DNA of 64,000 bases from an uncultured Actinomycetes bacterium (GTDB taxonomy: Bacteria; Chloroflexota; Dormibacteria; Aeolococcales; Aeolococcaceae), in the NCBI GenBank assembly GCA_964508345.1, contig CAZDTK010000001.1:236012-300011 (forward strand), read 5' to 3'. Each line of letters begins with the position of its first letter. The first letter of the stretch is position 1. The notes beneath the pieces are model-generated. The model searched no databases. It was not told the DNA's origin and saw nothing but the letters and a program-made list of their open reading frames with translations. The translations under genes and the position numbers were made by a program. Below are positions 9,985 to 63,100 of this stretch, piece by piece.

Positions 9985-10053
9985 GGGAGCCGGTCCACGC
10001 TGCCGGTGGCGGTCGGGGTCATGGGTGCGGCTCCACCGCCCGGTGCGCTCCGC

Positions 10054-12897: not shown

Positions 12898-12902
12898 CGG
12901 TG

Positions 12903-16683: not shown

Positions 16684-16746
16684 CCTCCGGCGACCGAGGC
16701 CCGGGGAGCTCGTCGCGTCCCGGTTGTGATTCCGCGTTCCTGCCGC

Positions 16747-46868: not shown

Positions 46869-46931
46869 TCCCGCATGGTAGAACGCGATGATCTACACGG
46901 TCAACGGCTCCGATCGCGCAACAATCGATCC

Positions 46932-47357
46932 ATGACAGCAGTTGGTGGGGCATTCCTTCTGGCCGGCCGCGTGCTCTTCGTCGCCCTCTTCCTCTTCTCG
47001 GCGCGGGGGCATCTTCAGCGTCACGCCCAGTACGCCGGGGTCGCCAGGGGCAAGCTCCCGCTCCCCTTCCTGGCCGGCATCCCCACCGGCCTCTACCTGC
47101 TGGCGGCGTCCGTCTCGGTCATCGCCGGCATCTGGCCGGACATCGGGTCGCTGATGATCGCCGCGTTCGTCCTGCCCGCGGGCTTCCTCTTCCACCGCTT
47201 CTGGACGGTCTCGGACCCGGCGGCGCGGCGCACCCAGGAGGGCGCCTTCTATCGCAACGTGACCCTGCTCGGAGCCGGGCTCGCCCTCTTCGCACTGTTC
47301 GGGGCGGCGGGCCACGTCCCCTTCGCCGTCACCGGCCCTCTCCTCAACCTGAGGTGA
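46932..47357 (+). CDS. DoxX-family membrane protein
   Basis: Internal ATG 46932; 4 TM helices (LLAGRVLFVALFLFSARGHL...). Confidence 0.65.
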   Translation: MTAVGGAFLLAGRVLFVALFLFSARGHLQRHAQYAGVARGKLPLPFLAGIPTGLYLLAASVSVIAGIWPDIGSLMIAAFVLPAGFLFHRFWTVSDPAARRTQEGAFYRNVTLLGAGLALFALFGAAGHVPFAVTGPLLNLR

Positions 47358-47361
47358 GTCA

Positions 47362-47784
47362 ATGAAGAAGCGCATGCGTCTGGTCGGCCTCGGCGCCCTG
47401 CTCGCCGCCATCGCCGCCTTCTTCCTCCACCCGCACAAGGGGCGCGAGCGCCGGCAGGCGGTCCGCCGCGGTGGCGAGAAGCTGCTCCGCCAGGGTGCGG
47501 GCGTCACCTCGCTGACCGGCAGCCGCCGCCGGCGCGCGCTGAGCGGCACGGTCGAGGCCAGGGAGCGGATCGAGGGTGCGCTGCTGGAGGCACTCGGTGC
47601 TGACGGGTTCGCGCTCCGGGTGATCCCCGGCGAGGACCAGAGCGTCATCGTCCGCGGTGAGGTGGCCTCGCTCGACCTGATCCGCCGCGCCAGCGAGGTG
47701 GTCGAGCGCGCCCGTGGCGACGCCGACGTGGTGAACCTGATCCGGCTGCGGACGCCGGCCGCGGGGGGAGCCGTCGCCGGCTGA
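47362..47784 (+). CDS. BON-domain protein (OsmY-like)
   Basis: N-terminal signal/anchor, BON-like segment VIVRGEVASLDLIRRASEVVERARGDADVVNLIRL. Confidence 0.6.
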   Translation: MKKRMRLVGLGALLAAIAAFFLHPHKGRERRQAVRRGGEKLLRQGAGVTSLTGSRRRRALSGTVEARERIEGALLEALGADGFALRVIPGEDQSVIVRGEVASLDLIRRASEVVERARGDADVVNLIRLRTPAAGGAVAG

Positions 47785-47815
47785 GGAACCCCGGCCCCAG
47801 CCGCCGCGTTCCATC

Positions 47816-48808
47816 ATGGTGCGGATGCGCAGGATCGCGGTGGCCATCGTCGGTCTGGTGATGGTGCTCGCCACCATGGCCGCGGCCCTGCCCAGCTCCG
47901 GGTCCCAGGCCGCCACCCCGCTGCCGTACGCCCCGCCGGGCTCCGACTTCAGCACCGCACCGGGCCCCGTGGTCAGCCCCGCACCGGGCCCCGTGGTCAG
48001 CGCTTCACCGGACTCGGACTCGGCAGCTGTGCAGTTCGCCACCCAGGTGCTGAGCGAGGCTCCGATCCCGCCCGGCGCCCAGCTCTGGACGGCCGCCGCG
48101 CCCGCGGCTCTGACGGCCCCGTTCGTGAGCATCGGTGTCAGCGGTCTGACCGACCTCGACGCGCTGTACCAGGTGAACGAGCAGGCCGGCCAGGCCCTGC
48201 AGAGCTACGTTCTGGCCGGCCTGCCCCAGGGATCCACGGTCGGAACGGCCGGGAACGGGTTCGGGCCGGCAGGATCCTGGATCGGGTTCGTGGTCTCCCT
48301 GCCCACCTCCGGGCCCAACGAGAGTGAGGCCCAGCTCCTCTACGCCACCACCCAGCTCGCGGACGGCAGCTACGTCCTGCGCATCGACGCCCAGGTGGTG
48401 TGGGTGCCCGATGCGGCGCCGTCCGACGCCCTCCCGCCGCCGGGCAGCGCGGTGCTCACCGGGTACACCACGATCTCGATGGCAGGCCCACCGAGCGGAT
48501 CCCTGACGGTCGACCTCGGTGAGACGGACAGCGCCCGGCTCGCCAACGCCATCAACACGCTCCCGCTGGCGGCAGCGATGGGGTGCATGGAAGCATCCGC
48601 GCTCTACACGATCACCTTCCACCCCGCATCGGGCTCCGGCCCGACCGATGTGGCGGTGGGCGGGACCTGCGGGCGGGCGGTGGACGTGACCGTCGGAGCC
48701 ACCCGGCTGCCCGCCCGGAGTGACCAGGGCTGCACGGTCCTTCGGCTGGTGGCCGGCTTTCTGCCCGCTGCGGCCGCCGGAACCCGAAGCCTCCTGGCGG
48801 AGTGCTGA
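47816..48808 (+). CDS. secreted hypothetical protein with a short APGPVVS tandem duplication
   Basis: Signal peptide MVRMRRIAVAIVGLVMVLATMAAA; 330 aa; no domain recognised. Confidence 0.55.
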   Translation: MVRMRRIAVAIVGLVMVLATMAAALPSSGSQAATPLPYAPPGSDFSTAPGPVVSPAPGPVVSASPDSDSAAVQFATQVLSEAPIPPGAQLWTAAAPAALTAPFVSIGVSGLTDLDALYQVNEQAGQALQSYVLAGLPQGSTVGTAGNGFGPAGSWIGFVVSLPTSGPNESEAQLLYATTQLADGSYVLRIDAQVVWVPDAAPSDALPPPGSAVLTGYTTISMAGPPSGSLTVDLGETDSARLANAINTLPLAAAMGCMEASALYTITFHPASGSGPTDVAVGGTCGRAVDVTVGATRLPARSDQGCTVLRLVAGFLPAAAAGTRSLLAEC

Positions 48809-48904
48809 CCTCCGCGTCACCCGGCGGAACGCAGCCGTCGGCGGTCGAACGGCCTGCGCTGCGGGTGGTCCGCTCCCCACGGCATCGGACGTAGCATCGG
48901 GCCC

Positions 48905-49933
48905 ATGCCCACCCTCCATCCACCCCTCCAGCCCATGCTCTGTGCCTCGGCGACCGAGATCCCGGCCGCCTCGGGCCTGGTCTACGAGCCCAAGTGGGAC
49001 GGCTTCCGCTGCATCGTCTTCCGCGACGGCGATTCGATCCACCTCGAGAGCCGCAACAGCCTGCCCCTCCAGCGCTACTTCCCCGAGCTGCTCGACCCGC
49101 TCCGCGCGGCGCTGCCCGAGCAGGCGGTGGTCGACGGCGAGATCGTGATCGCCGGGCCGCGCGGCCTCGACTTCGACGCCCTCCAGCTCCGCCTCCATCC
49201 CGCCGAATCCCGGGTGCGGATGCTCGCCGCCGAGAGCCCGGCGACGTTCATCGCCTTCGACCTGCTCGCGGCCGGCGACGAGGACCTCCGAGAACTGCCG
49301 CTCCGCGACCGCGCCTCACGTCTGCGCGCGGTGCTCGTCCCAAACCCCCAGGTCGCGCTCACCCCGCAGACCACGGACCCGCAGGAGGCGGCCTCCTGGT
49401 TCGACCGCTACGAGGGCGCCGGCTGTGACGGGGTGGTCGCCAAGCCGCTCACCTCAACGTATCGCAGCGGCGATCGCGGCTGGATCAAGGTCAAGCATCT
49501 CCGCACCGTCGACTGCGTGGTCGGCGGCTACCGCAGGGACCTCAAGATCGAGGCGGTGGCGTCGCTGCTGCTCGGCCTGTACGACACCGACGGCGTCCTC
49601 CACCACGTCGGCCACACCGCGTCGTTCTCGGCCGCCGAGCGCCGCGAGCTGCTGCAGCGGCTCCGCCCGCTGGAGGGCGGCACCTCGTTCGGGCAGGGGC
49701 GCACACCCGGAGGCCCGTCGCGATGGACGAGGGGGCGGGAGACGGACTGGGTGGCGGTGCGCCCCGAGCTGGTCTGCGAGGTGGCCTTCGACCATCTGCA
49801 GGGCAACCGCTTCCGCCACGCCTCCCGCTTCCTGCGCTGGCGCCCCGACCGCGCCCCGGACCAGTGCGGGTACGACCAGCTCCTGCCGCCCCACCCCTTC
49901 GACCTGGGGGTGATCCTGAACAGCCGCGCGTAG
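48905..49933 (+). CDS. ATP-dependent DNA ligase (LigC/LigD-ligase-domain type)
   Basis: Motif I EPKWDGFR (adenylated Lys), adenylation and OB-fold motifs; 342 aa. Confidence 0.85.
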   Translation: MPTLHPPLQPMLCASATEIPAASGLVYEPKWDGFRCIVFRDGDSIHLESRNSLPLQRYFPELLDPLRAALPEQAVVDGEIVIAGPRGLDFDALQLRLHPAESRVRMLAAESPATFIAFDLLAAGDEDLRELPLRDRASRLRAVLVPNPQVALTPQTTDPQEAASWFDRYEGAGCDGVVAKPLTSTYRSGDRGWIKVKHLRTVDCVVGGYRRDLKIEAVASLLLGLYDTDGVLHHVGHTASFSAAERRELLQRLRPLEGGTSFGQGRTPGGPSRWTRGRETDWVAVRPELVCEVAFDHLQGNRFRHASRFLRWRPDRAPDQCGYDQLLPPHPFDLGVILNSRA

Positions 49934-49947
49934 CGACCGGCGCCCGC

Positions 49948-50832
49948 CTACTCGATCGGGAGCAGGGCGGCGGCGATCCTCGCGACGCGCTCGGCATCGG
50001 CGATGGCATCGATCTCGACGATCCTGCCGTCGCTGACGGTGAAGCCCATGACGGTCGCCGCGCGCCCGTCCACGGCGACGATCACCCCGGCCGCGCCGTT
50101 CACGAGCGCGGGGCGCACCTGCGAACCCGGGAGCGCGGAGCGCAGCCCGCGCAGAGCCTGACGGGCGACGACCGCCGCGCCGCGGCGCTCCATGGACGGG
50201 GCGAAGGCACCTGCACCGGCGTCGAGACGGAGGACGACCTCGGGGTCGAGCAGCGCGACCAGGGCCTCGAAGTCACCGTCGCGCGCCGCCTGGAAGAAGG
50301 CGTCGACCACCCGCCGCTGGCGGGCGAGATCGGCATCGGGAGCCGGCACCTCGGCGCCCCTGATCCGCCGCCTCGCGCGGCTGGCGAGCTGCCGCGCCGC
50401 CACGGGCGTGCGCCCCACCACCGGAGCGATCTGCTCGAAGGGAAGCTGGAACATGTCGTGGAGCACGAAGGCGAGGCGCTCCGCCGGGGCCAGGGTGTCG
50501 AGCACGACGAGCAGGGCCAGGCCCACCGAGTCGGCGAGCAGCGCCTGCTCCTCCGGTGAGGCGACCACCGGGTCGGGCACGTGCACGGGGAGCGACTCCT
50601 CGCGCCGGACGTTGCGGGAGCGCAGCGTGTTGAGACAGACGCGGGCGACCACCGTCGTCAGCCACGCCTGGAGGTTCTCCACCTCGCTCGCCCCTGCCCG
50701 GCTGAGCCGCAGCCAGGCCTCCTGGACCGCGTCGTCGGCCTCGGTGAGCGATCCCAGCATCCGGTGCGCCACCGCCCGCAGATGGGTGCGGTGCTCTTCG
50801 AAACGGTCCGCCAGCCACTCCTGATCAGCCAC
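49948..50832 (-). CDS. ECF sigma factor with C-terminal SnoaL-like extension (ECF41/SigJ-like)
   Basis: Sigma-70 region 2 (DAVQEAWLRL) and region 4 (LAPAERLAFVLHDMFQLPFEQIAPVVG), plus a ~100-aa C-terminal extension. Confidence 0.85.
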   Translation of the reverse strand: MADQEWLADRFEEHRTHLRAVAHRMLGSLTEADDAVQEAWLRLSRAGASEVENLQAWLTTVVARVCLNTLRSRNVRREESLPVHVPDPVVASPEEQALLADSVGLALLVVLDTLAPAERLAFVLHDMFQLPFEQIAPVVGRTPVAARQLASRARRRIRGAEVPAPDADLARQRRVVDAFFQAARDGDFEALVALLDPEVVLRLDAGAGAFAPSMERRGAAVVARQALRGLRSALPGSQVRPALVNGAAGVIVAVDGRAATVMGFTVSDGRIVEIDAIADAERVARIAAALLPIE

Positions 50833-50929
50833 CGGTCACACAGCTCCTTCCTGGCGTGTCTGAGGGGTAGACCCGCGAGATCGAGGAGACGTGACGGGCG
50901 GCGGATCAGCCCGCCCAGCAGGAGGAGCC

Positions 50930-51738
50930 ATGACAGCAACGATTCTGGTCATCGGCGGCACCGGGCGGCTGGGGCGTCCCGTGGTCGCGCTGCTCCGCGA
51001 CGCCGGGTGCGCGGTGCGCGTGCTCACCCGCCACGAGGGTCGCCCCGAGGACGGCATCGAGCACACGGTGGGCGACCTTCGCACCGGCGAGGGCCTCGAG
51101 CAAGCCCTGGCGGGGGTCGCGACCGTCGTCAACTGCGCCGGCAGTCCCAAGGGCGATCAGGGGATGGCCGAGATCCTGGTGCGGGCGGCGGCGCGGGCGG
51201 GGACCACCCACCTGGTGAACATCTCCGTGGTCGGCGCCGGCCGGGTGCCGGTGCGGAGCCGCGTCGACCGCGCCATGTTCGGCTACTTCGCCGCCAAGCT
51301 GGGCGCGGAGCGGGTGATCTCCGGCTCCGGCCTGCCCTGGACGACGCTGCGCGCCAGCCAGTTCCAGGACGCCTTCGTCTGGCTGTGCCGGGCGATGTCA
51401 CCGCTGCCGGTGATCCCGGTCGCGGCCGGGGTTCGCTTCCAGCCGGTGGACACCGGGAGGTCGCGGCACGGGTCGCGGAGATCGCCCTCGGCGAGCCGGC
51501 CGGCCTGGTTCCCGAGATGGCGGGGCCGCGCGTGTACGCCATGGGCGATCTGCTCCGCGGCTACCTGCGGGCCAGCCACCGCCATCGCGCGCTCCTCCCG
51601 GTCCACATGCCCGGCGGTGCAGCCCGCGCGATCCGGGGCGGCGGCAACCTCGCCCCCGAGGGGGCCACCCTGGGCCGCCGGACGTGGGAGGAGTGCCTCG
51701 ACGAGGAGGTGGTCGCGAAGCGCCCCGCGCGTCGCTGA
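50930..51738 (+). pseudogene. NmrA-like/NAD(P)H-binding epimerase, apparent +1/-1 frameshift near 51445
   Basis: ATG 50930 with an AGGAGG RBS; Rossmann motif ILVIGGTGRLG; reading frame switches after FQPVD (frame of ORF 50891) to ...REVAARVAEIALGEPAGLVPEM... (frame of ORF 50581) at the run gacaccgggagg. Confidence 0.55.
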
Positions 51739-52007
51739 GATCCCGCGGCGCTCGCGCGCGCTCCGCGCCCGCCCCGGCTCGAGGGCCCGGCGGTATCCGG
51801 GGGCCGGTCACGCGCTGCCCATGAGCGCGCCCGGAGGCCCCTGCATGCCTCACCGGGTGGTTTCGGACTTTCGTGTCCGAAACCGGTTGTGAGAGGGCGG
51901 TGCCTGCCCCGCCGAGCGATCGGGCGGAGCGAGCCGTGAGAGGGTGGTCCCTGCCCCGTCCGCGCGATCGGGCGGATCGAGGCGTGCGACGCGGAGCTCG
52001 TCGGCCC

Positions 52008-53006
52008 TCAGCCCTTGCGGGCGCGGGACGGGGCCACCCGGCGCGGCTCGTCGTCGCCCTTGGGGAAGTGGGGCGGCCAGGGCGCGTCGCCGAGCCCCTC
52101 GCGCTCGTCACGGTCGGCCAGCTCCAGCAGCGTGTCCAGCCGGTGGGCGACCCTGTCGATGCCGGCACCCGGATCCCCTCTCTGGCTCAGCCGGCGCGGC
52201 ACCGTCTCCACGGTCAGCTCCGCGGGCTCGACGTCAGTCACCTCGTCCCATTCCAGCGGGCAGGAGACCCGCGCGTCCGGCACCGGGCGCACCGAGTAGG
52301 CGCTGGCGACGGTGCGGTCGCGGGCGTTCTGGTTGTAGTCGATGAAGACGCCGTGCCGCTCCTCCTTCCACCACTTGCTGGTGGCGAGCGTGGGCGCGCG
52401 CCTCTCGACCTCACGGGCGAGCGCCAGCGCCGCCCGGCGGACGGCGGTGAAGCCCCACTCGGGGACGATCCGGACGTTGATGTGGATGCCCCGCGACCCC
52501 GAGGTCTTGGGGAAGCCGTGCAGCCCCATGTCGTCCAGCACCTCGCGCACCACCAGCGCCACCCTGCGAATGTCGTCGAAGGGGATGTCGGGCTGGGGGT
52601 CGAGGTCGATGCGCAGCTCGTCGGGATGGTCGGTGTCCCCGCTGCGCACCGGCCACGGATTGATGTCGATGCAGCCCAGGTTCACCGACCAGATCAGCGC
52701 CGCCAGCGAGTCGATGACCAGCAGGTCGGCGGAGCGGCCGCTGGGGAAGTGGACCGTGGTGGTGCGCAGGTACCCGGTGTCGCCGACCGGTGCCCGCTTC
52801 TGGAAGAAGAAGGGGCCCGCCGCCCCGTTGGGGTAGCGCTTGAGGACGCTGGGACGGTCGAAGCAGCCCGTGAGCGCCCCCTCACCGGCGGCGATGTAGT
52901 AGTCGATGAGCCGGCGCTTCGTGATCCCGCGCTCTGCGAAGAAGACCTTGTCACCGTTGCTGATGGCGAGGTCGTGGCCATCGACCTCGATGCTCTCCCC
53001 GGTCAC
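52008..53006 (-). CDS. LigD polymerase (primase-polymerase) domain protein
   Basis: 332 aa; KRYPNG ... GFPKTSGSRGIHI ... motifs of the NHEJ PolDom. Confidence 0.8.
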   Translation of the reverse strand: MTGESIEVDGHDLAISNGDKVFFAERGITKRRLIDYYIAAGEGALTGCFDRPSVLKRYPNGAAGPFFFQKRAPVGDTGYLRTTTVHFPSGRSADLLVIDSLAALIWSVNLGCIDINPWPVRSGDTDHPDELRIDLDPQPDIPFDDIRRVALVVREVLDDMGLHGFPKTSGSRGIHINVRIVPEWGFTAVRRAALALAREVERRAPTLATSKWWKEERHGVFIDYNQNARDRTVASAYSVRPVPDARVSCPLEWDEVTDVEPAELTVETVPRRLSQRGDPGAGIDRVAHRLDTLLELADRDEREGLGDAPWPPHFPKGDDEPRRVAPSRARKG

Positions 53007-53683
53007 CTCGCGCGGTTCTCCGCCGCCGGCTCACCCTCCTCTCCGCCCCGCTCCTGCCAGGCATGGAAGCGCTGGAGGATGAGCGGCTCGGCCTCGGCCC
53101 AGCCACGGGCGCGCTGCTCGGGCCCCACCTCGATGTGGGTGTTGGCGGCGTGGCTGAAGACGATCACGTCGCGTCCGTCGGCGAGCAGCGCCTCCACGTT
53201 GTGCGGTGAGTCCTCGATGTAGAGGTCGGCGTTGACGGCGCCCTTCTCACCCATGAAGCACAGATCCCAGTAGGGGATGCCGTGCTTGTCCAGCCACTGC
53301 ACCGTCTGCGCCACCGCGATCTGGTGGAAGTGCTCGATGACCAGGCGGTGGGTGATGATGCGGATCCGCAGCCCCAGGTTGGAGAGGCGGCGGAGCGCCG
53401 GGCCGGCGCCGGCGATCATGTCCATCTCCAGGAAGAGCTTCCGCTCCACCACCGCGAAGCGGTGGACCTTGGGGAACTCGCCGGGCCGGATGCCCCATTC
53501 GGCCATCTCCCAGCCGACGTCGGGGGGGAGCGATTCCAGGTCGCGCCCCAGCCACTCGGCGACCACCCGGCGCATGAAGGGGTAGTAGTCGGCGCAGACG
53601 CCGTCGAGGTCCACGCCGAGCACGAACTCACGCGGGCTCACAGCCACGCCCGTGATTGTCGCCGAACCGGCCGCGACGGTCAC
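53003..53683 (-). CDS. HAD-family 5'(3')-deoxyribonucleotidase-like protein
   Basis: LGVDLDGVCADY (DxDxV motif I) and C-terminal HAD motifs; 4-nt overlap with the PolDom gene. Confidence 0.65.
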   Translation of the reverse strand: MTVAAGSATITGVAVSPREFVLGVDLDGVCADYYPFMRRVVAEWLGRDLESLPPDVGWEMAEWGIRPGEFPKVHRFAVVERKLFLEMDMIAGAGPALRRLSNLGLRIRIITHRLVIEHFHQIAVAQTVQWLDKHGIPYWDLCFMGEKGAVNADLYIEDSPHNVEALLADGRDVIVFSHAANTHIEVGPEQRARGWAEAEPLILQRFHAWQERGGEEGEPAAENRAR

Positions 53684-54501
53684 ACCACCGCTCCCGGCTC
53701 AGCCCTGCGGCTCCGGGGTCCTCGCCGGGCGGAGAGCACCAGGAGCAGCGCCACCACCCCCAGGATGATCCAGAGCGAGTAGTCGGAGAGGTTGTTGACG
53801 AAGGTCTCTGCCGGCTTGCCGATGAAGTAGCCGATCGCCACCATCTCGCCGATGCAGAGCAGCTCGCCCAGGCCGTCCAGGGTGATGAACTTCCAGAACG
53901 GCATCCGCGTCTCGCCGGCCAGGAAGTAGAAGACGCCGCCGGGCAGCCAGAGCGTCGGCGAGAGCAGGACCGCCCACACCGAGAAGCGGGCAAATATCCG
54001 CTCGCCCCTGGCCACCCGCCGGGTCCAGCTGGGGTCGGTCCGGCAGAGGAAGTCGATCAGCACCCGCCCGTAGCGGCGGCCTCCGAAGTAGTAGCAGGGG
54101 TCGGTGCACCAGCTGATCGGCAGGGGGGCGAGCAGCGCAATCCAGATGGCCACCTGGCCGGTGCGCACCTCGGCTCCGCTCACGATCTCCGCCGCCGCCG
54201 CCGCCCGGATGGCCGATGCCTGGATGACCTGCCGGTGCAGGATCATCCAGGTCGCGATCGGGGTGCCCACGTAGTACCAGATGGAGGCGGCCAGCACCGG
54301 GCCCACGATCAGGAAGTCCAGCCAGCCCCAGCGTCCCCGGAGCAGGCGCTCGCCGGGGTGGAGGGGAGCAGGTGCCTCGAGGCTGGCCGGCGCGCCGGAG
54401 GGCACCGCCGCGGGCGCCGTCAGATCCGGCGACGGCCGGAGGCCCTCGGCGTCGCGGGCCGGGTCCGGGTCGCGGGCCGGGGCGGCCGGCTCGGAGCTCA
54501 C
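53680..54501 (-). CDS. DedA/VTT-family membrane protein
   Basis: GTG at complement 54499-54501 chosen because the upstream 130 codons of the ORF are low-complexity G/R-rich; conserved FYFLAGETRMPFWKF...IGYFIG. Confidence 0.55.
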   Translation of the reverse strand: MSSEPAAPARDPDPARDAEGLRPSPDLTAPAAVPSGAPASLEAPAPLHPGERLLRGRWGWLDFLIVGPVLAASIWYYVGTPIATWMILHRQVIQASAIRAAAAAEIVSGAEVRTGQVAIWIALLAPLPISWCTDPCYYFGGRRYGRVLIDFLCRTDPSWTRRVARGERIFARFSVWAVLLSPTLWLPGGVFYFLAGETRMPFWKFITLDGLGELLCIGEMVAIGYFIGKPAETFVNNLSDYSLWIILGVVALLLVLSARRGPRSRRAEPGAVV

Positions 54502-54527
54502 CCGGCCATTGTCCTCACCGGCCGAGG

Positions 54528-55511
54528 TCAGGCGGTCTCCGCCTCCGCGGCCGCCGCGTGGGGTGGGGCGTCTCCCTCCGTGACCGCGGCGTCTCCGGCC
54601 ACGCTCCTCGCCGGGCGGCGCCCTCCCGCCAGCATCACCGCCACCGCGACCACGATCAGCCCGGCGGCCACCAGGGTGCCGGCGGTGACCGTCTCGCCGA
54701 GGAACGCCCAGCCCAGCAGCACCGCCACCAGCGGGTTGACGTACGCGTAGCTGGACACCGCCCGGGGCGAGACCTTGCCGAGCAGGTAGACGTAGGCGGT
54801 GTAGGCGACCAGGGATCCGAACACCACCAGGTAGGCGAACCAGAACAGCGAGACCGCCGAGATCCTCCCGGGATGGATCTGACCCCATTCACCCAGGATC
54901 CCGGCGAAGGCGCAGAGGAGGACGCCGGCGCAGAGCATCTCCATCGCAACGCCCACCAGCGGGCGCCGGGGCACCCGCGCCCCGCGCGCGTAGATCGAGC
55001 CCGCCGCCCAGCAGACCGGGGAGAGCAGGGCGACGGCGTAGAAGCCCGGCGAGGCCGTTCCCCCGCCACCGGTGCGCAGCAGCAGGGCCACGCCCGCGAA
55101 GCCGGCGACCAGGCCCAGCGAGGCCAGCCGGCTCAGCCGCTGGGCCCCGCGCAGGTGGGCAAAGACCGCCATCCACAGCGGCACGGTCCCCACCAGGAGT
55201 GCGGTCACCCCCGAGGGCACGTGCTGCTCGGCGAAGGTCACCCCGCCGTTGCCGCAGAACAGGAGGAGGCCGCCGATGACGAGGGCCGAGCGCCAGTGGA
55301 CGGGGGTGATCGGGTCCCCCCTGCGGTCACCGCTCAGGTAGGCGGCCGGGAAGAGGATCGCGCCCGCGACCAGGAAGCGGACCCCCGCCATGGCGAGCGG
55401 CGGGATGGTCTCGATGGCGACCCGTATCCCCAGGTAGGTGGAGCCCCAGATCACGTACACGGCCGCGAAGGCGGCGACCACGAGGGGGACCGCCGGCCGT
55501 GCCCGCGTCAT
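54528..55511 (-). CDS. EamA/DMT-family transporter
   Basis: ATG at complement 55509-55511; 10 TM helices, duplicated EamA halves. Confidence 0.8.
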   Translation of the reverse strand: MTRARPAVPLVVAAFAAVYVIWGSTYLGIRVAIETIPPLAMAGVRFLVAGAILFPAAYLSGDRRGDPITPVHWRSALVIGGLLLFCGNGGVTFAEQHVPSGVTALLVGTVPLWMAVFAHLRGAQRLSRLASLGLVAGFAGVALLLRTGGGGTASPGFYAVALLSPVCWAAGSIYARGARVPRRPLVGVAMEMLCAGVLLCAFAGILGEWGQIHPGRISAVSLFWFAYLVVFGSLVAYTAYVYLLGKVSPRAVSSYAYVNPLVAVLLGWAFLGETVTAGTLVAAGLIVVAVAVMLAGGRRPARSVAGDAAVTEGDAPPHAAAAEAETA

Positions 55512-56233
55512 CACCCCCCGGCTCCGTCCCCGCTGACGAGAGCCGGGAACCTCCTGCGGATGGCGGTGACGCTCGGGGGCTGGCCGATGCCGGCGCCCAG
55601 GTCGACGTCGGGGAGCGGTGGCTCGGCCACCGTCCGGAGCGGGATCTCGCCGGCCCAGACCGGCAGGGCCCGGTCGGAGGCGGGGTCGAGCGGCGGGCCG
55701 GTGCGGACCTTGGCAGAGCACTCGGCCAGGTCCACCGCGATCACGGCGGTCGCCTCCAGCTCCTTCGGGCTGGGCTGGCGAACCTCCGCCCACCGTCCCG
55801 GCACGAGATGCTCCACGACCGCCCGCAGGGCCCTCCCGCGCTCCTCGGGGTCGGTGACCGGGCGGGCCCGTCCCCTCACCACCACGCTGCGGTAGTTCAT
55901 GGAGTGGCCGAAGGCGGAGCGGGCGAGCACCAGCCCGTCCAGGTGGGTGACGGTCACGCAGACACCCTGGAGGGCGGCCTGGAGGCTGCGGTTGGCGGCC
56001 GCCCCGTGGAGGTAGAGGGTGTCGCCGTCCCGGCCGAAGCCGGTCGGCAGCACCAGCGGCTCCCCGTCCACGATCACCCCCACGTGGCAGATCAGGGCCG
56101 CGTCGAGGATGGCGTGGATGGTCGCCCGGTCGTAGCGGGCGCGATCCGCGTGGCGCCGGACCTGGACGCGGGGGCTCGCCGGACCTGCGATCTCCGCCGC
56201 CTCCCCCTGATCCCGCGCCACATCAGCGGCCAT
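55511..56233 (-). CDS. pyridoxamine-5'-phosphate-oxidase-family (split-barrel flavin-binding) protein
   Basis: 240 aa; PNPOx-like pattern (RATIHAILDAALICHVGVIVDGEPLVLPTGF...); start codon preceded by a GAGGG RBS; 1-nt overlap with the eamA start. Confidence 0.65.
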   Translation of the reverse strand: MAADVARDQGEAAEIAGPASPRVQVRRHADRARYDRATIHAILDAALICHVGVIVDGEPLVLPTGFGRDGDTLYLHGAAANRSLQAALQGVCVTVTHLDGLVLARSAFGHSMNYRSVVVRGRARPVTDPEERGRALRAVVEHLVPGRWAEVRQPSPKELEATAVIAVDLAECSAKVRTGPPLDPASDRALPVWAGEIPLRTVAEPPLPDVDLGAGIGQPPSVTAIRRRFPALVSGDGAGG

Positions 56234-56252
56234 GCCTCTGCCCTCTATATGT

Positions 56253-56258
56253 TATAAT
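56253..56258 (+). promoter_or_regulatory. perfect TATAAT -10 hexamer 8 nt upstream of the MocR start codon (near-leaderless transcript likely), within a 33-bp divergent intergenic region
   Basis: Read directly from the sequence: tatatgttaTAATACaaactgATG. Confidence 0.4.
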
Positions 56259-56266
56259 ACAAACTG

Positions 56267-57592
56267 ATGAACGTTACCGAACTATTCTACATGAGCGGGC
56301 GGCGTGCCGCCGACCTGGCCGTCGCGGTCGAGGCCGCGGTCCGGGACGGCCGGCTCCAGCCGGGGGAGCGTCTGCCCACCGTCCGGACCGTGGCGGCCGA
56401 GCTGGAGGTGAGCCCGGCGACGGTCGCCGCCGCCTACCGGGAGCTGGGCCGCCGCGGGCTGGCGGTCGGGGCCGGCCGCTCCGGGACCTCGGTATCCCCC
56501 CGGCCTCCGCTCCACGCCTCGGTCCGGCCCCGGCTCCGTCCCGGGCTCCGCGACCTGGCACAGGGCCAGCCCGACCGCGAGCTGCTCCCCGACTGGAGCC
56601 GGGCGCTCGCCACGCTGCCCCGGCGTTCCCTCCTCTACGGCGCCCCGATGGTCGACCCCGAGCTGGCCGACCTGGCCCGGGACCGGCTCCGGGCCGACGG
56701 CCTCGACGCCACCCACCTCACCGTGGTGAGCGGGGCTGTCGACGGCATCGAGCGGATCCTCGGGGCCCACCTGCGCCCCGGCGACGGCGTCGCCGTCGAG
56801 GATCCCATCTACCCTCCGATCATCGACCTGCTCCGGGCCATGTCCCTGCGCAGCCTGGCGGTTCGGGTCGACTCGCGCGGCATGCTCGCCGACGACCTGG
56901 ACGGCGCCCTGCGGCGGGGCGCCCGGGCGGTGGTCATGACCCCGCGCAGCCAGAACCCGTTCGGCGGAGCCCTCGACGACCTGCGCCGCACCGAGCTGCG
57001 CCGCGTCCTCGCCCGCCATCCCGAGGCGCTGGTGGTCGAGGACGATCACGCCGAGGCGGTCGGCGGGGGGAGCGTGGTCGGCGTGTCGCTCCCGGATGCC
57101 CCGGCCTGGGCGGTGGTGCGGTCGGTCTCCAAGACCCTCGGCCCCGACCTCCGCCTCGCCGTCATCTGCGGCGACGAAGGGACGGTGGCGCGCGTCGAGG
57201 GACGGCTGTCGGTGGGCGCCGGTTGGGTCAGTCACCTGCTCCAGCGTCTGGTGATCAGCCTCTGGTCGCGCCCCGGACTCGACCTCCTCCTCGCCCACGC
57301 CGCGGACATCTACCGCCAGCGACGCGAGGGTCTCCTCGAGGCCCTCGAGACGCGTGGCATCGCCGCCCACGGCGCCACCGGCTTCAACGTCTGGGTCCCG
57401 GTGGAGGCCGAGGCCCCCGTGCTCGACGCCCTCGCCGACGCGGGCTACGCGGCCCTTCCCGGTGAGCGCTTCCGGATCGCCACCGGGCCCGCGATCCGGA
57501 TCACCTGCGCCGGTCTCGACCCCGTCGAGGCGGAGGCGGTGGCCGACGCGGTGGCCGCCGCGGGCCGCCCCGGATCCTCGCGTCTGACCTGA
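56267..57592 (+). CDS. MocR/GabR-type regulator (GntR HTH fused to a PLP-dependent aminotransferase-like domain)
   Basis: N-terminal GntR HTH ([25 protein letters not shown]), C-terminal fold-type-I aminotransferase-like domain with [13 protein letters not shown] (PLP Lys context). Confidence 0.85.
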
Positions 57593-57845
57593 GCGCTTCC
57601 GAGGAGGCGCGGCGCGCCGCCAACCACTCCGCGTACGGTCTGGGCGGCAACGTGTGGACGGGGACGTGGGGCGAGGAGTGCGATTCGCCCGCCGCATGGA
57701 GACGGGAGGCGTCTTCGTCAACGGCATGACCCACTCCGACCCGCGGCTGCCGTTCGGCGGTGTCAAGCGCAGCGGCTACGGCCGCGAGCTGCACGCCTTC
57801 GGCATCCGCGAGTTCGTCAAAGTCAAGACGATCTGGGTGGTCTAG
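57593..57845 (+). pseudogene. C-terminal remnant (~85 aa) of an aldehyde dehydrogenase, internally frameshifted
   Basis: [21 protein letters not shown] in one frame (beginning inside the MocR 3' end), then after a 1-nt slip at acggggac: [21 protein letters not shown]...[13 protein letters not shown]...[10 protein letters not shown]; no N-terminal ~400 aa present. Confidence 0.6.
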
Positions 57846-57878
57846 CGGCGTGGGCAGGAGTGCGGGCGGATCTCTCCC

Positions 57879-59414
57879 TCAGCAGCCCGGAGCGGTGAGG
57901 ATGAGGAGGACCCCGACGATGTTGATGGTCATGTGGATGATCGCCCCCGGCCACACCGACCTCGACTTGGCGTAGACGTAGGCGAGCAGGATTCCACTCA
58001 GGAAGACGGGGAGGAAGAGCGTCGGCTCCGCCCAGCCCACGTGGGCGGCCGAGAAGATCGCCGCACTGATGAGGACCGCGCCCCACAGCGGCAGCCGTCC
58101 CTGCAGCCAGCCGAAGGTGAAGCCGCGGAAGATGATCTCCTCCGAGATCGGCGCGATGACCGCGACCGCGAGCAGGGCCAGGGCGATCGAGCTGCCGAAC
58201 TCGCCCCGGATGCCGACGCACTGGTTGGTGGAGTTGGCGCCGGGGAAGATGACCCTGCTCAGCAGCCCGCCGCCGTCCTGGAGGACCAGCGCGGCGAAGC
58301 CCAGCGGGATCCCCGCCGCCAGCCACGGCCACGACGGCAGGCGGAGGCCCAGCGCCAGCAGCGAGGTGTGGCGGCGCAGCCCGACCAGGAGCGCGATCAG
58401 CAGCAGGCTGCCGCCATACACCGCGATCTCGTCCGCGTAGGAGAGCGCGACGGCGCCTCCGCTTCCGGCGGTGATCCCCAATCCCTGGGCCGTCACCCCC
58501 GCGACCCAATTGGCGGCCAGGATGATGGGCAGCAGCGTGACCAGCACCGGGGCCACGTCGGTCCAGGTCCACGACGTCCGGGGGGGCGGCCCCTCCGCCG
58601 CCGAGCGCGCCGAGGGGAGGAGCGGGGCGGCTGCCGGCGGTCGGGTGGGGACCACCGTCCAGCCGTAGGGGCCGGGGGCCCAGACCATCGGCATCGGCCG
58701 CACCGCGAGCACCAGGCTGCTGGCCATCCGGTCGCCGAGCGCGCGCCGCCAGGGGTCGGCCAGCCCCGGGATGAAGCCGATGCCGACCGTGAGCAGGCTC
58801 CACCACCAGCCGGCGGTGCGGAGCATCGTCTGCCCCCAGGTGAGCCGCTCGCCGCTCCTCGCGTCGACCACGCGCAGGCCGAGGGCGCGCATCCCCGGGG
58901 TGGCCCCCGAGTGCCAGCCGAGCGCCGGGTAGACGAAGGGGATGGCGATCAGGCTGAGCAGGGCGATCAGCTCCCCGATCAGGAAGCCGGGCAGGTTCGC
59001 ATCCGCCGTGGTCGCGACCGTGGCCGGGGCGATGGCCGCCTCCACGATGCTGCCCCCGGCCACCACCCCGATCACCACGAGGATGGCGATGAAGACCCAG
59101 TCCAGGGCGAAGGCGCCCAGGCGCCGCCCGAATCCGGCGAGCTGGAGCTCCCGGATCCCGAACCCGCTGGCAGGTGCGCCCCTCGGGGGCGGCGGAGGGA
59201 GTGCCCCCTGCAGAGCGGGCGGCCATGCCGGTGGCTGTCCCGGGGGTGGCGGCCATGCGGGTGGCGGTGCCGCGGGCGGTTGTCCCGGAGGCGGCGGCCA
59301 TGTGGGTGGCGGCCCCGCGGGCGGTTGCCACGCCGGGGGAGGGGGAGCCGCGGCCGCCGGAAGGCTCCAGCCCGAGGGCGGAGGCGGGGGCGCAGGTGGG
59401 GGAGACTGGTCCAT
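57879..59414 (-). CDS. RDD-domain / CPBP (CAAX-protease-like) intramembrane metalloprotease fusion with a Pro-rich N-terminal repeat region
   Basis: N-terminal PPPPGQPPA-type repeats; RDD segment GFGRRLGAFALDWVFIAIL; C-terminal CPBP motifs EEIIFRG ... FSAAH ... HMTIN. Confidence 0.7.
   Translation of the reverse strand: MDQSPPPAPPPPPSGWSLPAAAAPPPPAWQPPAGPPPTWPPPPGQPPAAPPPAWPPPPGQPPAWPPALQGALPPPPPRGAPASGFGIRELQLAGFGRRLGAFALDWVFIAILVVIGVVAGGSIVEAAIAPATVATTADANLPGFLIGELIALLSLIAIPFVYPALGWHSGATPGMRALGLRVVDARSGERLTWGQTMLRTAGWWWSLLTVGIGFIPGLADPWRRALGDRMASSLVLAVRPMPMVWAPGPYGWTVVPTRPPAAAPLLPSARSAAEGPPPRTSWTWTDVAPVLVTLLPIILAANWVAGVTAQGLGITAGSGGAVALSYADEIAVYGGSLLLIALLVGLRRHTSLLALGLRLPSWPWLAAGIPLGFAALVLQDGGGLLSRVIFPGANSTNQCVGIRGEFGSSIALALLAVAVIAPISEEIIFRGFTFGWLQGRLPLWGAVLISAAIFSAAHVGWAEPTLFLPVFLSGILLAYVYAKSRSVWPGAIIHMTINIVGVLLILTAPGC
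59222..59345. repeat. imperfect ~36-45-nt tandem repeats (GGCGGCCATGYGGGTGGCGG...) encoding the Pro-rich repeats of the RDD-CPBP protein
   Basis: Three consecutive units visible by eye in 59222-59345. Confidence 0.5.
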
Positions 59415-59489
59415 GGGACCTCGTCCGTGGAGAGCGGAGGTGCCGGCGGATTGTAAACGGCTCCCGGCCCGGGCCTCCGCCCCTGCCGG

Positions 59490-60374
59490 TCAGTACGCGA
59501 CGGTGCCCGCGCTCTCCGCCTGACCCTGCCCCTCGGTACCGATCAGGGATTCCTTGCCCTCGCCGCGCCGGGAGGATGCACCCAGCCAGCTCACCTCGCG
59601 CCCGCGCGGCGGGGACGTCATCCACCGGGAGGTGGCCGGCCAGGGCGGGCCCGTGAGCCACGACCAGCGGTCCGGCGAGCGGAAGCGGAGCTGCCGCCAG
59701 CCGTGGCGCACCGCGGTCCTGCTGAGCCGCCGGTCGGCGTTCACCGTCGTCGGGTGGCCCACCGCCTGGAGCATCGGGATGTCCCCCACCCCGTCGCCAT
59801 AGGCGTAGGAGCCCTCGAGGTCGACGCGGTGGGCCGCCGCGAGGCGGCGGACCGCGTCCACCTTGGCGTTGCCGTGGCAGAGGGAGACCAAGCCCGTGTA
59901 GCGGCCGGAGACGATCTCCGCCTCGGAGGCCACCACGCCATCCGCGCCGACGATCCCACCCAGCCTGTCGATCAGCTCGTGGGTGGAGGCCGAGACCAGG
60001 AAGATCAGGTGGCCGCGCTCGCGGTGCCAGGCGATCAGGTCCAGGGCTTCGGCGTAGAGGCGGGGGCCGAGCACCCGGGGGATGGTCCGCTCCGCCACCC
60101 GGCGCAGCTCGGCCACCTCCATGCCGCGGACCGCGTCACCGATGGCCCGGACCGATTGCTGGACCTCCTGCTCGCTGAAGCCCCGGGCGCTGAACTGCAG
60201 GCCCTGGACCGCGGCGTGGAAAAGGGAGCCGCTCGAGATCAGCCCCGCCCGCCACAGCGGACCCGCCAGCGCCATCATCGACGAGCCCCGAACGACGGTC
60301 CGATCGACGTCGAAAAACGCTGCGATCCGCCAGGGTCGGGGTTCCACGGCTACCATCCCGCCCCATGCAAGCAC
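59490..60374 (-). CDS. HAD-IB-family hydrolase (phosphoserine-phosphatase-like)
   Basis: FFDVDRTVV (motif I), ...YAYGDGVGDIPML (motif IV); C-terminal ~70 aa look non-domain. Confidence 0.6.
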   Translation of the reverse strand: MLAWGGMVAVEPRPWRIAAFFDVDRTVVRGSSMMALAGPLWRAGLISSGSLFHAAVQGLQFSARGFSEQEVQQSVRAIGDAVRGMEVAELRRVAERTIPRVLGPRLYAEALDLIAWHRERGHLIFLVSASTHELIDRLGGIVGADGVVASEAEIVSGRYTGLVSLCHGNAKVDAVRRLAAAHRVDLEGSYAYGDGVGDIPMLQAVGHPTTVNADRRLSRTAVRHGWRQLRFRSPDRWSWLTGPPWPATSRWMTSPPRGREVSWLGASSRRGEGKESLIGTEGQGQAESAGTVAY

Positions 60375-60376
60375 GA

Positions 60377-61258
60377 ATGACCCTCGCCGCGCCCAGAGTG
60401 AGCCACCTGTTAACCGAAGGGCGAACTCGTCTTAGGGCCTCGAAGGCAATCGACCACTGGCGAGGGGCAATCGCGCGCGAGGACGCCGCGGATCTCCTCG
60501 CCCTGGCCATCGGAGTCGACGTCGACGATCTCGACCCGAAGGCGTCGGTTCCAGCGCGCGTGGAGCGCCGTTACCGCGACTACGTGGAGCGTCGAGCGGG
60601 GGGCGAGCCGGTGGCCCTGATCCGGGGCGTCGTGGACTTCGCCGGCCTCACCCTCCAGGTGCGCCCGGGTGTCTTCGTGCCCCGCCGGACCAGCGAGCTG
60701 ATGGCCGAGACCGCGGTCGCCGCCCTGCGCCGCCGCTCGGTCAAGGTGGCGGTCGACGTCGCCTGCGGGGCGGGGCCGGTAGCCTGCACGGTCGCTCACG
60801 CCCTGCCCACGGCTGAGGTCTGGGGGCTGGACATCGACCCGGCCGCGGTCGCCCTGAGCCGGGCCAATGCGCGCCGCCATCACCTCGCCAACGCCCATTT
60901 CGCGGTCTCCGACCTTCTCGACGGGCTGCCTCGGCGCCTTCGCCGTGGGGTCGGCGTCTTCACGATGCACCCACCCTACGTGGCCCGGGCGGACATCCGC
61001 AGCCTGCCCCGGGAGATCCGCGGCTTCGAGCCCCGCCACACCCTGACCGACGGGTCGCCCGACGGGCTGGGCATGGTTCGGGATCTGGTCGACCAGGCTC
61101 CCGAATGGCTCCAACCCGGCGGCCGGGTCCTGGTCGAGGTCGCCCCCTTTCTCAGCCGCCCGATCCAGGCGCTGATGCGCCGCGCCGATCTCGAGGTGAC
61201 CGTCTCGTCCGACCCCGGCGGGATCACCCGGGTCGTCTCGGGACGGCTGTCCCGCTAG
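60377..61258 (+). CDS. HemK/PrmC-like N5-glutamine (or N6-adenine) methyltransferase
   Basis: SAM motif VDVACGAGPVA, catalytic-type motif HPPY; start taken at the second Met to avoid a divergent overlap (the ORF opens at 60365). Confidence 0.65.
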   Translation: MTLAAPRVSHLLTEGRTRLRASKAIDHWRGAIAREDAADLLALAIGVDVDDLDPKASVPARVERRYRDYVERRAGGEPVALIRGVVDFAGLTLQVRPGVFVPRRTSELMAETAVAALRRRSVKVAVDVACGAGPVACTVAHALPTAEVWGLDIDPAAVALSRANARRHHLANAHFAVSDLLDGLPRRLRRGVGVFTMHPPYVARADIRSLPREIRGFEPRHTLTDGSPDGLGMVRDLVDQAPEWLQPGGRVLVEVAPFLSRPIQALMRRADLEVTVSSDPGGITRVVSGRLSR

Positions 61259-62446: not shown

Positions 62447-63013
62447 TCAGACCAGGACGCGCTCCACGACGCGCTGGCGCCGGCCGCTCCCCGACAGCCC
62501 GAAGACCCTCACCACCTGCCACCCGATGATCGTGGCCAGGACCATGACCAGGAGGTCGCTCCAGCGGAGGGTCAGCCCCGAGATTCGCGGGACCGAGGCG
62601 AAGATCCCGTCGAAGGGCCCGGACAGCCACGAGCCCGCGACGAAGATGAGGTGCGCAAACCCGGTGTTGGCCGCGGCGATGAGGCGGAAGAGGAAGTCGA
62701 GGCCGACGACGGCGTCGATCAGCCCCACGAGGAGGTAGATCCCCTGGCGGATGCGCTGCTCCGCCATCGTTCGCGCCAGCAGGATCCGTGTCCGCTGGGG
62801 CGCGCCCTGCACCTCCCTGACGGGCTGCTGGGTCTCCCGAGCCGGCTGGCGGACGGCCGCCGGTGCGGGGGACTCCAGGCGCTCCGGCGCCGGCTCCCCC
62901 TCCTTGTCGGTCGTTCCTCGCATCTCGCGCGATCCCTGCATGATCATCGCTGTGAACCTCCGGTGCCTGCCCCTCTCTGGGACGCTTTCGGCATCAGCGA
63001 TATCATAACTCAT
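62447..63013 (-). CDS. YggT-family-like membrane protein (N-terminal region/start uncertain)
   Basis: C-terminal half has YggT-like TM pattern (IYLLVGLIDAVVGLDFLFRLIAAANTGFAHLIFVAGSWLSGPFDG...); unusually AT-rich 5' end and upstream region (cattataacgctgttgtaatgtatga). Confidence 0.45.
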   Translation of the reverse strand: MSYDIADAESVPERGRHRRFTAMIMQGSREMRGTTDKEGEPAPERLESPAPAAVRQPARETQQPVREVQGAPQRTRILLARTMAEQRIRQGIYLLVGLIDAVVGLDFLFRLIAAANTGFAHLIFVAGSWLSGPFDGIFASVPRISGLTLRWSDLLVMVLATIIGWQVVRVFGLSGSGRRQRVVERVLV

Positions 63014-63100
63014 TATAACGCTGTTGTAATGTATGACCTTCTCGGCAGGGACGATGAGGCCCCGTGCGTCAGGACGCCGCAGGGAGGGATCCGGCCGGCG

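Follow-up and report, generated by a model that had tools for sequence, protein, structure and literature searches.

A PtsJ-like MocR regulator with an Anf3-like divergent partner, a predicted shared promoter-operator and the deletion relic of an aldehyde dehydrogenase gene in a peat Dormibacterota genome

What does a MocR regulator control when its gene stands between a divergent operon on one side and the tail end of an aldehyde dehydrogenase (ALDH) gene on the other? The question is raised by the mocR locus in a stretch of 64,000 nucleotides of contig CAZDTK010000001.1 (assembly GCA_964508345.1, positions 236,012 to 300,011 of the forward strand; the whole stretch is called the window), in which the initial annotation saw a former gabR-gabD-type unit whose dehydrogenase had been deleted. 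The explanation favored here, which is considered probable as a whole, is that a PtsJ-like regulator forms an autoregulated switch at a promoter-operator shared with its divergent partner, and that the ALDH fragment is the relic of a separate deletion. The anatomy of the locus, its homologies, synteny and conservation, and the repeated, independent disappearance of the ALDH gene were observed by comparing over 100 related loci (labeled L plus a number), including 16 species-level relatives (L006-L021, with MocR proteins 73-87% identical to that of the window) and a distant set of 84 metagenomic loci (48-86% identical); conservation counts in the clade loci refer to n = 17. The window comes from a Candidatus Dormibacterota genome from peat, with an identical copy of the MocR protein on nine metagenome contigs from peat samples and with genome-collection relatives that are almost all Candidatus Dormibacterota (Dormibacteria) metagenome-assembled genomes from bog, fen, and SPRUCE peat. 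Coordinates of the features are collected in Table 1.

On its profile matches, the regulator is PtsJ-like, not GabR-like. The protein joins a GntR-type winged helix-turn-helix domain (approximately residues 18-76) to a fold-type I aminotransferase-like domain (approximately residues 96-428) that carries the lysine for pyridoxal 5'-phosphate (PLP), which is the architecture of the MocR subfamily. The lysine (K289, codon 57131-57133) lies in an SVSK motif and aligns with the SK of MppQ, and residues S286-V287-S288-K289, N230, D259/D260, R296, and R411 are invariant in an alignment of 14 MocR sequences that reaches down to 50% identity. The NCBIfam ranking places PtsJ (NF012025) first, with 375.9 bits over residues 9-431, followed by PdxR (147 bits), EhuR, and YczR, whereas GabR (NF052285) yields a partial match over residues 167-262 with 44.8 bits against a cut-off of 600, so that the GabR part of the label "MocR/GabR-type" given in the initial annotation does not hold. 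PtsJ of Salmonella enterica represses pdxK and its own gene, and PLP strengthens the repression (PMC6071262). The window protein resembles PtsJ in its length (~430-440 aa), its two-domain architecture, its conserved PLP-site residues, and its autoregulation, the latter being a prediction here. Unlike PtsJ, it belongs to a different phylum and has neither an adjacent pdxK nor any other adjoining kinase gene, its neighbors being the Pyridox_ox_2, EamA, and VTT-like genes and the ALDH remnant. The MocR protein of L018 (936-2099) has just 387 aa, which suggests an internal deletion.

Among the 78 metagenomic loci in which the divergent neighbor of mocR could be evaluated, this neighbor is an Anf3-like flavoprotein of the PNPOx superfamily in 51, EamA(-DedA) alone in 13, DJ-1 in 5, and another gene in 9, whereas an ALDH gene lies downstream of mocR in 6 of 62 metagenomic relatives. 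None of the 16 clade loci (L006-L021) lacks mocR or the flavoprotein gene, and the pair has been kept through at least three independent losses of the ALDH gene. Because a divergent flavoprotein is so much more frequent than a downstream ALDH, the conserved functional link is that of the regulator to the flavoprotein, with or without the transporter, and a gabR-gabD unit is unsupported because the subfamily-wide partner is the divergent flavoprotein and not the ALDH. The five relatives in which a DJ-1/PfpI protein replaces the Anf3-like partner are L028, L056, L068, L073, and L076, of which L028 additionally has luciferase-like oxidoreductases.

The gene content, the partner statistics, and the operator boxes described below fit the PdxW/PdxQ regulons predicted by Suvorova & Rodionov in 2016, which comprise the COG3467 protein "PdxO" with or without DMT transporters (PMC5320631), the fit being to the published description of this regulon type. 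In both cases a MocR gene adjoins a COG3467-type "PdxO" gene, with (PdxQ) or without (PdxW) a DMT-family transporter, and direct and inverted boxes are found. The differences are that Dormibacterota and Chloroflexi were absent from that study (PMC5320631), that the partner here looks like a haem and flavin adenine dinucleotide (FAD) protein and not like a vitamin B6 oxidase, and that the operator is merged with a leaderless-type -10 element. The locus adds a further phylum to an already described class of regulon (the PdxW/PdxQ type), which here adjoins a young pseudogene.

The gabR-gabD account, in which a GabR-like MocR would have regulated the downstream dehydrogenase until the deletion left the regulator orphaned or re-used, is judged quite improbable. 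The best NCBIfam matches of the ALDH are succinate-semialdehyde dehydrogenases (SSADH; PRK09406, 562 bits), and the gene follows mocR directly and on the same strand in the closest relatives, the two nearest by protein search (MocR 89% and 87% identical) having intact ALDH proteins of 462 and 459 aa. In L030, L037, and L060, an ALDH gene lies two genes downstream of mocR. In L017, five genes are located between mocR and the RDD/CPBP gene (11346-18439), encoding a saccharopine-dehydrogenase-like protein, a second ALDH (488 aa), a class-III aminotransferase, an APC permease, and the SSADH-like ALDH; by its gene content this set is a catabolic cluster of the gamma-aminobutyric acid (GABA) or polyamine kind, and the GABA-like context speaks for the gabR-gabD account. 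GabR of Bacillus subtilis has the same MocR architecture, and an SSADH gene belongs to its regulon; its gene, however, stands divergent to gabT-gabD, whereas the ALDH gene of this locus was situated downstream of mocR, on the same strand and under a promoter of its own, and there is no gabT in the window and no class-III aminotransferase gene at the locus. The best NCBIfam match of both the intact orthologue and the remnant is the NADP-dependent, GabD1-type SSADH (NF006915), but the L012 orthologue reaches 562.1 bits against a cut-off of 730 and is SSADH-like in this sense, and the window copy (109.6 bits, positions 376-456 of 457) lacks ~82% of the protein.

The distribution of the gene argues further against a gabR-gabD unit. 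The RDD/CPBP gene is the constant right-hand border of the ALDH slot, its synteny being kept in 15 of 16 clade loci (L006-L021), with L019 as the exception. Among these species-level relatives, an intact 459-aa ALDH fills the slot in L012 and L021, and L017 and L019 carry the same ALDH further downstream. The opposite relic is found in L016 (11327-11515), where ALDH nucleotides 15-126 are kept at 87.5% identity to L021, a mirror image of the window. The 118-bp spacer of L015 seems to keep just a piece of the ALDH upstream region when read by eye against L021 (blastn reported no match), L020 has a gene for a 590-aa protein with immunoglobulin-like domains in the slot (11520-13292), and nine loci (L006-L011, L013, L014, and L018) have just 29-103 bp of unrelated spacer. 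In L026, a 744-aa protein without a Pfam match is encoded in or adjoining the slot (8043-10277). Since the intact loci L012 and L021 are sister to deleted loci in a neighbor-joining tree of MocR and the outgroups L017 and L019 are intact, the tree indicates that the ALDH gene was lost independently at least three times. The mocR gene and its operator were kept after these losses, and the ALDH was not an obligate part of the MocR regulon. Where the ALDH gene directly follows mocR (L012, L021, L023, and L026), it has its own TACCAT ~7-8 nt before its ATG, and in the window the operator motif occurs at the divergent promoter and nowhere else. A MocR site at the ALDH promoter was considered and found unconvincing, as the candidate is a single half-site-like ATACCAT that is itself the -10 element. 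Taken with the subfamily-wide partner statistics and the partial GabR match, these observations count against the former gabR-gabD-type unit proposed in the initial annotation.

The favored reading treats the ALDH fragment as the product of a separate deletion, and the structure of the remnant is in keeping with this. The mocR stop codon is followed immediately by the final ~84 codons of an SSADH-like ALDH gene, close to the ~85 aa originally estimated, although ~375 and not ~400 N-terminal residues of the 459-462 aa are missing. After frame repair, the remnant matches Pfam Aldedh (E=4.7e-22, profile positions 381-461 of 461), and the alignment thus upholds the similarity on which the initial description depended. 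The reading frame runs in frame A to 57660 (...GNVWT) and in frame B from 57663 to 57842 (DVGRG...), ending in the stop codon TAG at 57843-45; because just 2 nt (57661-62) separate the two frames, one nucleotide is missing, in agreement with the 1-nt slip reported earlier. The stretch 55400-57900 is identical in five assemblies from different samples (L001-L005), frameshift included, so that the frameshift is real and an assembly or sequencing error is ruled out as its source. These five assemblies differ in the gene calls elsewhere, an NmrA-like gene being called at 4664-5626 in L001 and L004 and not in L002, L003, and L005.

In the comparison that the initial annotation proposed, relatives have an intact ALDH at the same position (L012, L021, L023-25, and L026), and mapping of the junction against L023 and L012 confirms that the fragment is the 3' end left by a deletion. 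Window positions 57500-57596 correspond to L023 6210-6306, and 57601-57847 to L023 7477-7724 (91.9% nucleotide identity), so that ~1,170 bp of L023 (6307-7476) are absent from the window; the outcome is the same against L012. The lost stretch comprises the whole mocR-ALDH spacer, the ALDH promoter, and codons 1 to ~377, or ~82% of the protein. L023 carries TCGCC at both breakpoints, a candidate microhomology, and the window junction GCGCTTCC has no clean match to the predicted product. The C-terminal 60 aa of the remnant are 95% identical to the L023 ALDH. Differences between the remnant and L023 at codon positions 1, 2, and 3 number 0, 5, and 14 in 80 codons (4, 1, and 18 between two intact ALDH genes over the same codons), a pattern which suggests that most of the divergence accrued under selection and that the deletion is recent. 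Three replacements specific to the remnant (E>G, N>K, and G>V) fall on sites that are invariant in four intact orthologues; with 80 codons, the codon-position pattern and the replacements are suggestive of a recent deletion but not significant. In the proposed sequence of events, the ancestral ALDH gene would have lain between mocR and the convergent RDD/CPBP gene, a deletion of ~1.17 kb with its break at the mocR stop codon would have taken the ALDH promoter and codons 1 to ~377, and the leftover would then have gained the 1-nt deletion and the three replacements.

That the 63-aa open reading frame (ORF), or the remnant as a whole, still functions as a small protein or as a 3' untranslated region or spacer of mocR is extremely unlikely. 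The ORF described in the initial annotation does exist, with a GTG start codon, the remnant is 92% identical to the intact L023 gene, and it is probably co-transcribed with mocR, as a search of 51500-60500 for terminator-like sites gave three hits of which none is located between mocR and the remnant. However, a recent deletion explains the high identity, the differences are mostly at third codon positions, and the remnant bears the frameshift and the three replacements at invariant sites. The catalytic ELGG (Glu) and GQSC (Cys) motifs (approximately residues 250-285 of the L023 ALDH) are inside the deleted part, leaving no functional enzyme, and there is no other copy of the ALDH gene in the window. 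In other lineages 29-118 bp of unrelated spacer suffice, and gene callers disagree on the product of the remnant (49 or 59 aa). Most likely, the GTG ORF results from the frameshift and does not constitute a gene.

The regulatory part of the favored reading concerns the short region between mocR and the flavoprotein gene. The two genes are separated by a 33-nt spacer (56234-56266), and a perfect TATAAT (56253-56258) is followed by 8 nt (ACAAACTG) up to the mocR ATG, both as initially described. Perfect TATAAT hexamers number 2 in the 64 kb against an expectation of 0.23, the other being at 63012-63017 on the minus strand. There is no Shine-Dalgarno sequence in the 8 nt between the -10 element and the ATG, and a scan of 51500-60500 for canonical -35/-10 promoters gave no match, with no -35 for mocR or for the minus-strand promoter. 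A -10 element 6-9 nt 5' of the start codon without a Shine-Dalgarno sequence is the geometry of a leaderless gene, and its spacing is fixed in the 17 clade loci; among the 84 metagenomic relatives, 64 have TANNNT 6-9 nt before the start codon, in 48 of them at exactly 8 nt, and the consensus of the distant loci has TG one base upstream of the hexamer, which makes it an extended -10. On this alignment, the TGT-TATAAT of the window represents a TGnTAnnnT element that is shared across the subfamily and keeps a distance of ~8 nt to the start codon. The near-leaderless geometry noted at the outset thus stands, with the transcription start site inferred, and the mocR mRNA is likely to be leaderless or to have a leader of 1-2 nt.

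Translation starts at 56267 because this position is always a start-type codon (ATG, GTG, or TTG) in the 17 clade loci, while the internal ATG at 56291 (M9) is not kept, being CTG, ACG, ATC, or CCG in relatives, and is ruled out as the start. Gene callers are inconsistent on this point: in L023 the start is called at 5001 as opposed to 4977, some callers choose the internal M9, and others read through the promoter/operator (TTGTTATAC...), which adds a spurious extension to the N-terminus, as in the P-series N-termini MLWYKAVNVTEL and LLYYKLLNVPTR. A small check across the genome found TANNNT 5-9 nt before 5 of 288 candidate starts and before 0 of 516 internal controls (the numbers being small and the starts uncurated), which makes leaderless-type genes plausible in the host organism. 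Long ORFs with TANNNT 6-8 nt before their ATG begin at window positions 1312, 48905, and 60365 on the plus strand (TAGGAT, TAGCAT, and TACCAT, respectively) and are leaderless candidates.

The predicted operator overlaps this promoter. The block 56248-56290, with a GC content of 39% in a window of 70.5%, is near-invariant in 17 loci whose MocR proteins are 75-87% identical to that of the window, synonymous sites included, while its flanks and the rest of mocR vary; mocR codons 2-8 (AAC GTT ACC GAA CTA TTC TAC) are AT-rich for a genome of this composition. Three boxes can be distinguished in the window: Box 1, TATGTTAT (56248-55), and Box 2, ATACAAA (56257-63), form an imperfect inverted repeat, and Box 3, GAACTAT (56279-85, mocR codons 5-7), is a direct repeat of Box 2 located 22 bp downstream. 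The consensus of the 84 loci, TTTGTTAyAGTACAAAnCg-ATG-AACGTACCGgTACaATATC (in full, TTTGTTAyAGTACAAAnCgATGAACGTACCGgTACaATATC), has the family boxes TTTGTTAC/AGTACAAA plus GTACAAT at +22, that is, an imperfect palindrome (TTTGTTAC / GTACAAA) whose right arm is repeated directly as GTACAAT 22 bp downstream, in codons 5-7. A pair of direct boxes together with a single inverted box is the commonest layout of MocR operators, in which direct repeats are typically two or three helical turns apart (PMC5320631). No other copy of the motif was found in the window.

The same AT-rich core may also serve the opposite strand. With A56254, T56258, and A56259 invariant, a TANNNT is also present on the minus strand of every one of the 17 clade loci, and the window version, TATTAT, which overlaps the mocR -10 by 5 bp, is the predicted promoter of the divergent operon. 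In nine loci of the Dormibacterota clade (L015, L016, L017, L020, L021, L026, L031, L032, and L034), an in-frame flavoprotein ATG is located exactly 18 nt from the mocR start, and an 18-nt divergent spacing (to the flavoprotein or EamA start) is found in the distant loci L027 (3983-4000), L029 (3983-4000), and L030 (4001-4018) as well; with 17 of 56 evaluable metagenomic loci, it is the largest single class. The TAnnnTA core sits between these divergent start codons, an arrangement that suggests two back-to-back leaderless genes served by one symmetric -10. In the window, the corresponding position reads H-I-E-G-R-G-M, and the flavoprotein start is now 15 nt further downstream, behind a short leader with GAGGG, so that, judged by the relatives, the spacer was ancestrally 18 nt long and its present 33 nt are derived. 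In symmetric bidirectional promoters, positions 2 and 6 of opposite -10 hexamers pair (Warman et al., bioRxiv 10.1101/2020.01.31.928960). The window has the overlapping opposite hexamers, the 2/6 pairing (A56254 and T56258), and the ancestral start-codon spacing of 18 nt in common with these promoters, and it differs in that the arrangement is deduced from start codons instead of mapped start sites and in that the flavoprotein start of the window is at 33 nt.

The divergent partner was initially described as a PNPOx-like flavoprotein; membership of the PNPOx superfamily (PF12900) stands, and the assignment can be refined. The protein matches PDB entries 6RK0 (E=9.9e-55, residues 19-213) and 4YBN (E=1.5e-33). 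The former is Anf3 of Azotobacter vinelandii, a dimeric terminal oxidase with haem b, FAD, and a PNPOx fold, in which the haem is held by His70, Arg21, and Lys170 (PMC6579470). With a chain-to-paper numbering offset of 2 for 6RK0, which was verified at each of the four motifs R-Y, H, Y-N-F-N, and K, residues R27, H76, and K175 of the window protein align to Anf3 Arg21, His70, and Lys170, respectively. These residues are kept in MocR-adjacent homologues that are 44-82% identical (R27 in 63/64, H76 in 69/70, and K175 in 66/66). The combination of the PF12900 fold, the proximal His, and the Arg and Lys contacts to the propionates is shared with Anf3 and MSMEG_4975 (4YBN/4YBR), and points to a close Anf3 homologue and putative haem-FAD protein of the Anf3/MSMEG_4975 type. 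In contrast to Anf3, the window gene is not in a nitrogenase cluster, and the Tyr103-Asn-Phe-Asn loop is replaced by F-G-H-S. The regulated enzyme would most likely be a haem-flavin oxidase/reductase and not a pyridoxine or pyridoxamine 5'-phosphate oxidase. In the literature library that was searched, no paper names Anf3 together with MocR.

The coordinates and Pfam matches agree with the gene order reported in the initial annotation, with mocR divergent from the PNPOx-family gene and EamA and then the DedA-like gene following the latter. A GAGGG is located ~7 nt 5' of the flavoprotein ATG, and the flavoprotein stop and the EamA start overlap in ATGA, by which the EamA gene is translationally coupled to the flavoprotein gene. 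The EamA protein scores 266.1 bits against NCBIfam YedA (cut-off 270). The order and the overlap are in keeping with the proposed PNPOx-EamA-DedA operon, while the DedA assignment is weak in the window (VTT_dom 26.8 bits against a cut-off of 33.9); orthologues of the DedA-like protein in L029 and L030 have clear VTT matches. The operon gene order is kept in at least 15 loci, and in three lineages (L009, L015, and L021) the EamA gene is missing from between the flavoprotein and DedA-like genes, with the flanking genes staying in place. The NT5C and LigD-PrimPol genes are joined by 4-nt overlaps, and the divergent operon may extend into them. In L014 (8081-8675), the flavoprotein gene aligns in two frames, either through a frameshift or through an assembly error.

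Taken together, the favored reading is that mocR would be transcribed from the extended -10 TGT-TATAAT as a leaderless or nearly leaderless mRNA, and that the same AT-rich core, read as TATTAT on the minus strand, would serve the genes for the Anf3-like, EamA, and DedA-like proteins and possibly NT5C and LigD-PrimPol. A MocR dimer with PLP would bind the three boxes, covering both the -10 that the two promoters share and the initial 20 nt of the mocR transcript, and would thereby repress both its own gene and the divergent operon, which is probably under MocR control; PLP or a PLP-bound ligand would tune the binding, as in PtsJ. In this mechanism, where transcription starts, that MocR binds the DNA, which way it regulates, and which effector and cofactors take part are predictions from sequence comparison. 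With the same anatomy, MocR could also work in the manner of GabR and PdxR, repressing its own gene and, with an effector, activating the Anf3-like operon. PdxR acts from a shared intergenic region as an activator of pdxST and a repressor of its own gene (PMC5320631), Box 3 and 56270-56290 lie upstream of the minus-strand -10 at roughly -20 to -35, where class II activators sit, and the minus-strand promoter has no recognizable -35. Boxes 1 and 2, however, extend over the -10 hexamer of each strand, a position normally associated with repression, and the closest characterized relative, PtsJ, is a repressor, so that activation of the operon appears unlikely, though it is the strongest of the competing explanations.

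Several points nevertheless weigh against the repressor switch favored here. That mocR starts without a leader, that the minus strand has a promoter, and that MocR acts as a repressor are predictions, and GabR and PdxR, the best-studied MocR proteins, activate divergent genes. The PtsJ match of 375.9 bits is below the equivalog cut-off of 573. The gap of 8 nt between the -10 element and the start codon exceeds the canonical 6-7 nt by 1-2 nt, which makes a leader of 1-2 nt as likely as a truly leaderless mRNA, and in the 17-locus alignment the start codon reads TTG in L007, L009, L010, L013, and L017. TTG is a poor start codon for leaderless mRNAs. The boxes of the window clade match the family half-site at 5 of 7 positions, and the conservation of Box 3 could in part stem from constraint on the N-terminal residues of the protein, of which the one at position 7 is a conserved aromatic, or from a requirement that the 5' end stay unstructured. 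The predicted haem and FAD content of the partner rests on alignment to one solved homologue.

Table 1. Positions in the window of the mocR locus, its predicted regulatory elements, and its neighbors
Feature	Position	Strand	Basis or remark
mocR	56267-57592	+	441 aa; Pfam GntR E=2.1e-12, Aminotran_1_2 E=4.2e-22
Anf3/MSMEG_4975-like PNPOx-superfamily gene	55511-56233	-	240 aa; Pyridox_ox_2 PF12900 E=1e-46; COG3467 type
EamA/DMT transporter (YedA-like)	54528-55511	-	327 aa; Pfam EamA E=3.5e-37
DedA/VTT-like membrane protein	53680-54501	-	273 aa as called; weak VTT_dom
NT5C	53003-53683	-	gene call
LigD PrimPol	52008-53006	-	gene call
Predicted extended -10 TGT-TATAAT for mocR	56250-56258	+	sequence; A56254 and T56258 invariant, 17 loci
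Predicted -10-like hexamer TATTAT	56254-56259	-	TANNNT kept in 17/17 clade loci; 5-bp overlap with mocR -10
Predicted operator/promoter block	56248-56290	.	nucleotide conservation, 17 loci
Putative relic of ancestral flavoprotein start codon	56246-56248	-	ATG in relatives, ATA in window; 18 nt from mocR start
ALDH pseudogene remnant	57593-57845	+	Pfam Aldedh after frame repair
Deletion junction	57593-57600	+	adjoins mocR stop TGA 57590-92
63-aa GTG ORF in remnant	57654-57845	+	ORF list
RDD + CPBP (Rce1-like) membrane protein	57879-59414	-	Pfam RDD and Rce1-like; convergent

Beyond these features, an Rfam search of 55000-58500 returned a chance match to a CRISPR direct repeat alone (E=0.89). 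The LigD PrimPol gene (52008-53006) forms a pair of the non-homologous end joining type with a nearby ATP-dependent DNA ligase gene on the opposite strand, and the stretch at window ~46267-52850 (L001 1-6740 with an offset of 46266) has a PIN/PhdYeFM toxin-antitoxin pair and an extracytoplasmic function (ECF)-type sigma factor. Among the more distant matches, L022 (Pseudonocardia, 39% identity) was dropped as an orthologue, having no Anf3-like or EamA neighbor.

These findings do not overturn the current understanding of MocR regulators. For annotation, they mean that the "Aldedh" ORFs of 49-63 aa on these contigs are a pseudogene fragment, that mocR starts at 56267, and that the "PNPOx" partner is to be read as Anf3-like. 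Of most interest among the by-products are the ALDH gene's repeated independent losses, which furnish a natural series for the study of gene loss in uncultured Dormibacterota of peat, from the intact gene through a 3' relic and a 5' relic to its complete absence, and the compact, conserved bidirectional promoter-operator of a MocR subfamily. A broader interpretation, offered tentatively and at somewhat less than even odds, is that this subfamily has a conserved module of ~45 bp, in which a symmetric -10 core (TGnTAnnnTA) would serve two divergent leaderless genes that were ancestrally 18 nt apart and the operator would extend over the -10 into the first seven codons, with a PLP-sensing MocR gating a haem-FAD, Anf3-like oxidase/reductase and an exporter. 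The fixed operator/promoter geometry in more than 80 environmental loci, combined with a haem-protein partner, provides a testable hypothesis on what the large PdxW/PdxQ class senses and controls. If the broader interpretation is true, a PLP-sensing regulator gates an Anf3-like haem-FAD enzyme plus an exporter and not a vitamin B6 oxidase, and the label "PdxO", widespread in predicted MocR regulons, would be functionally wrong.

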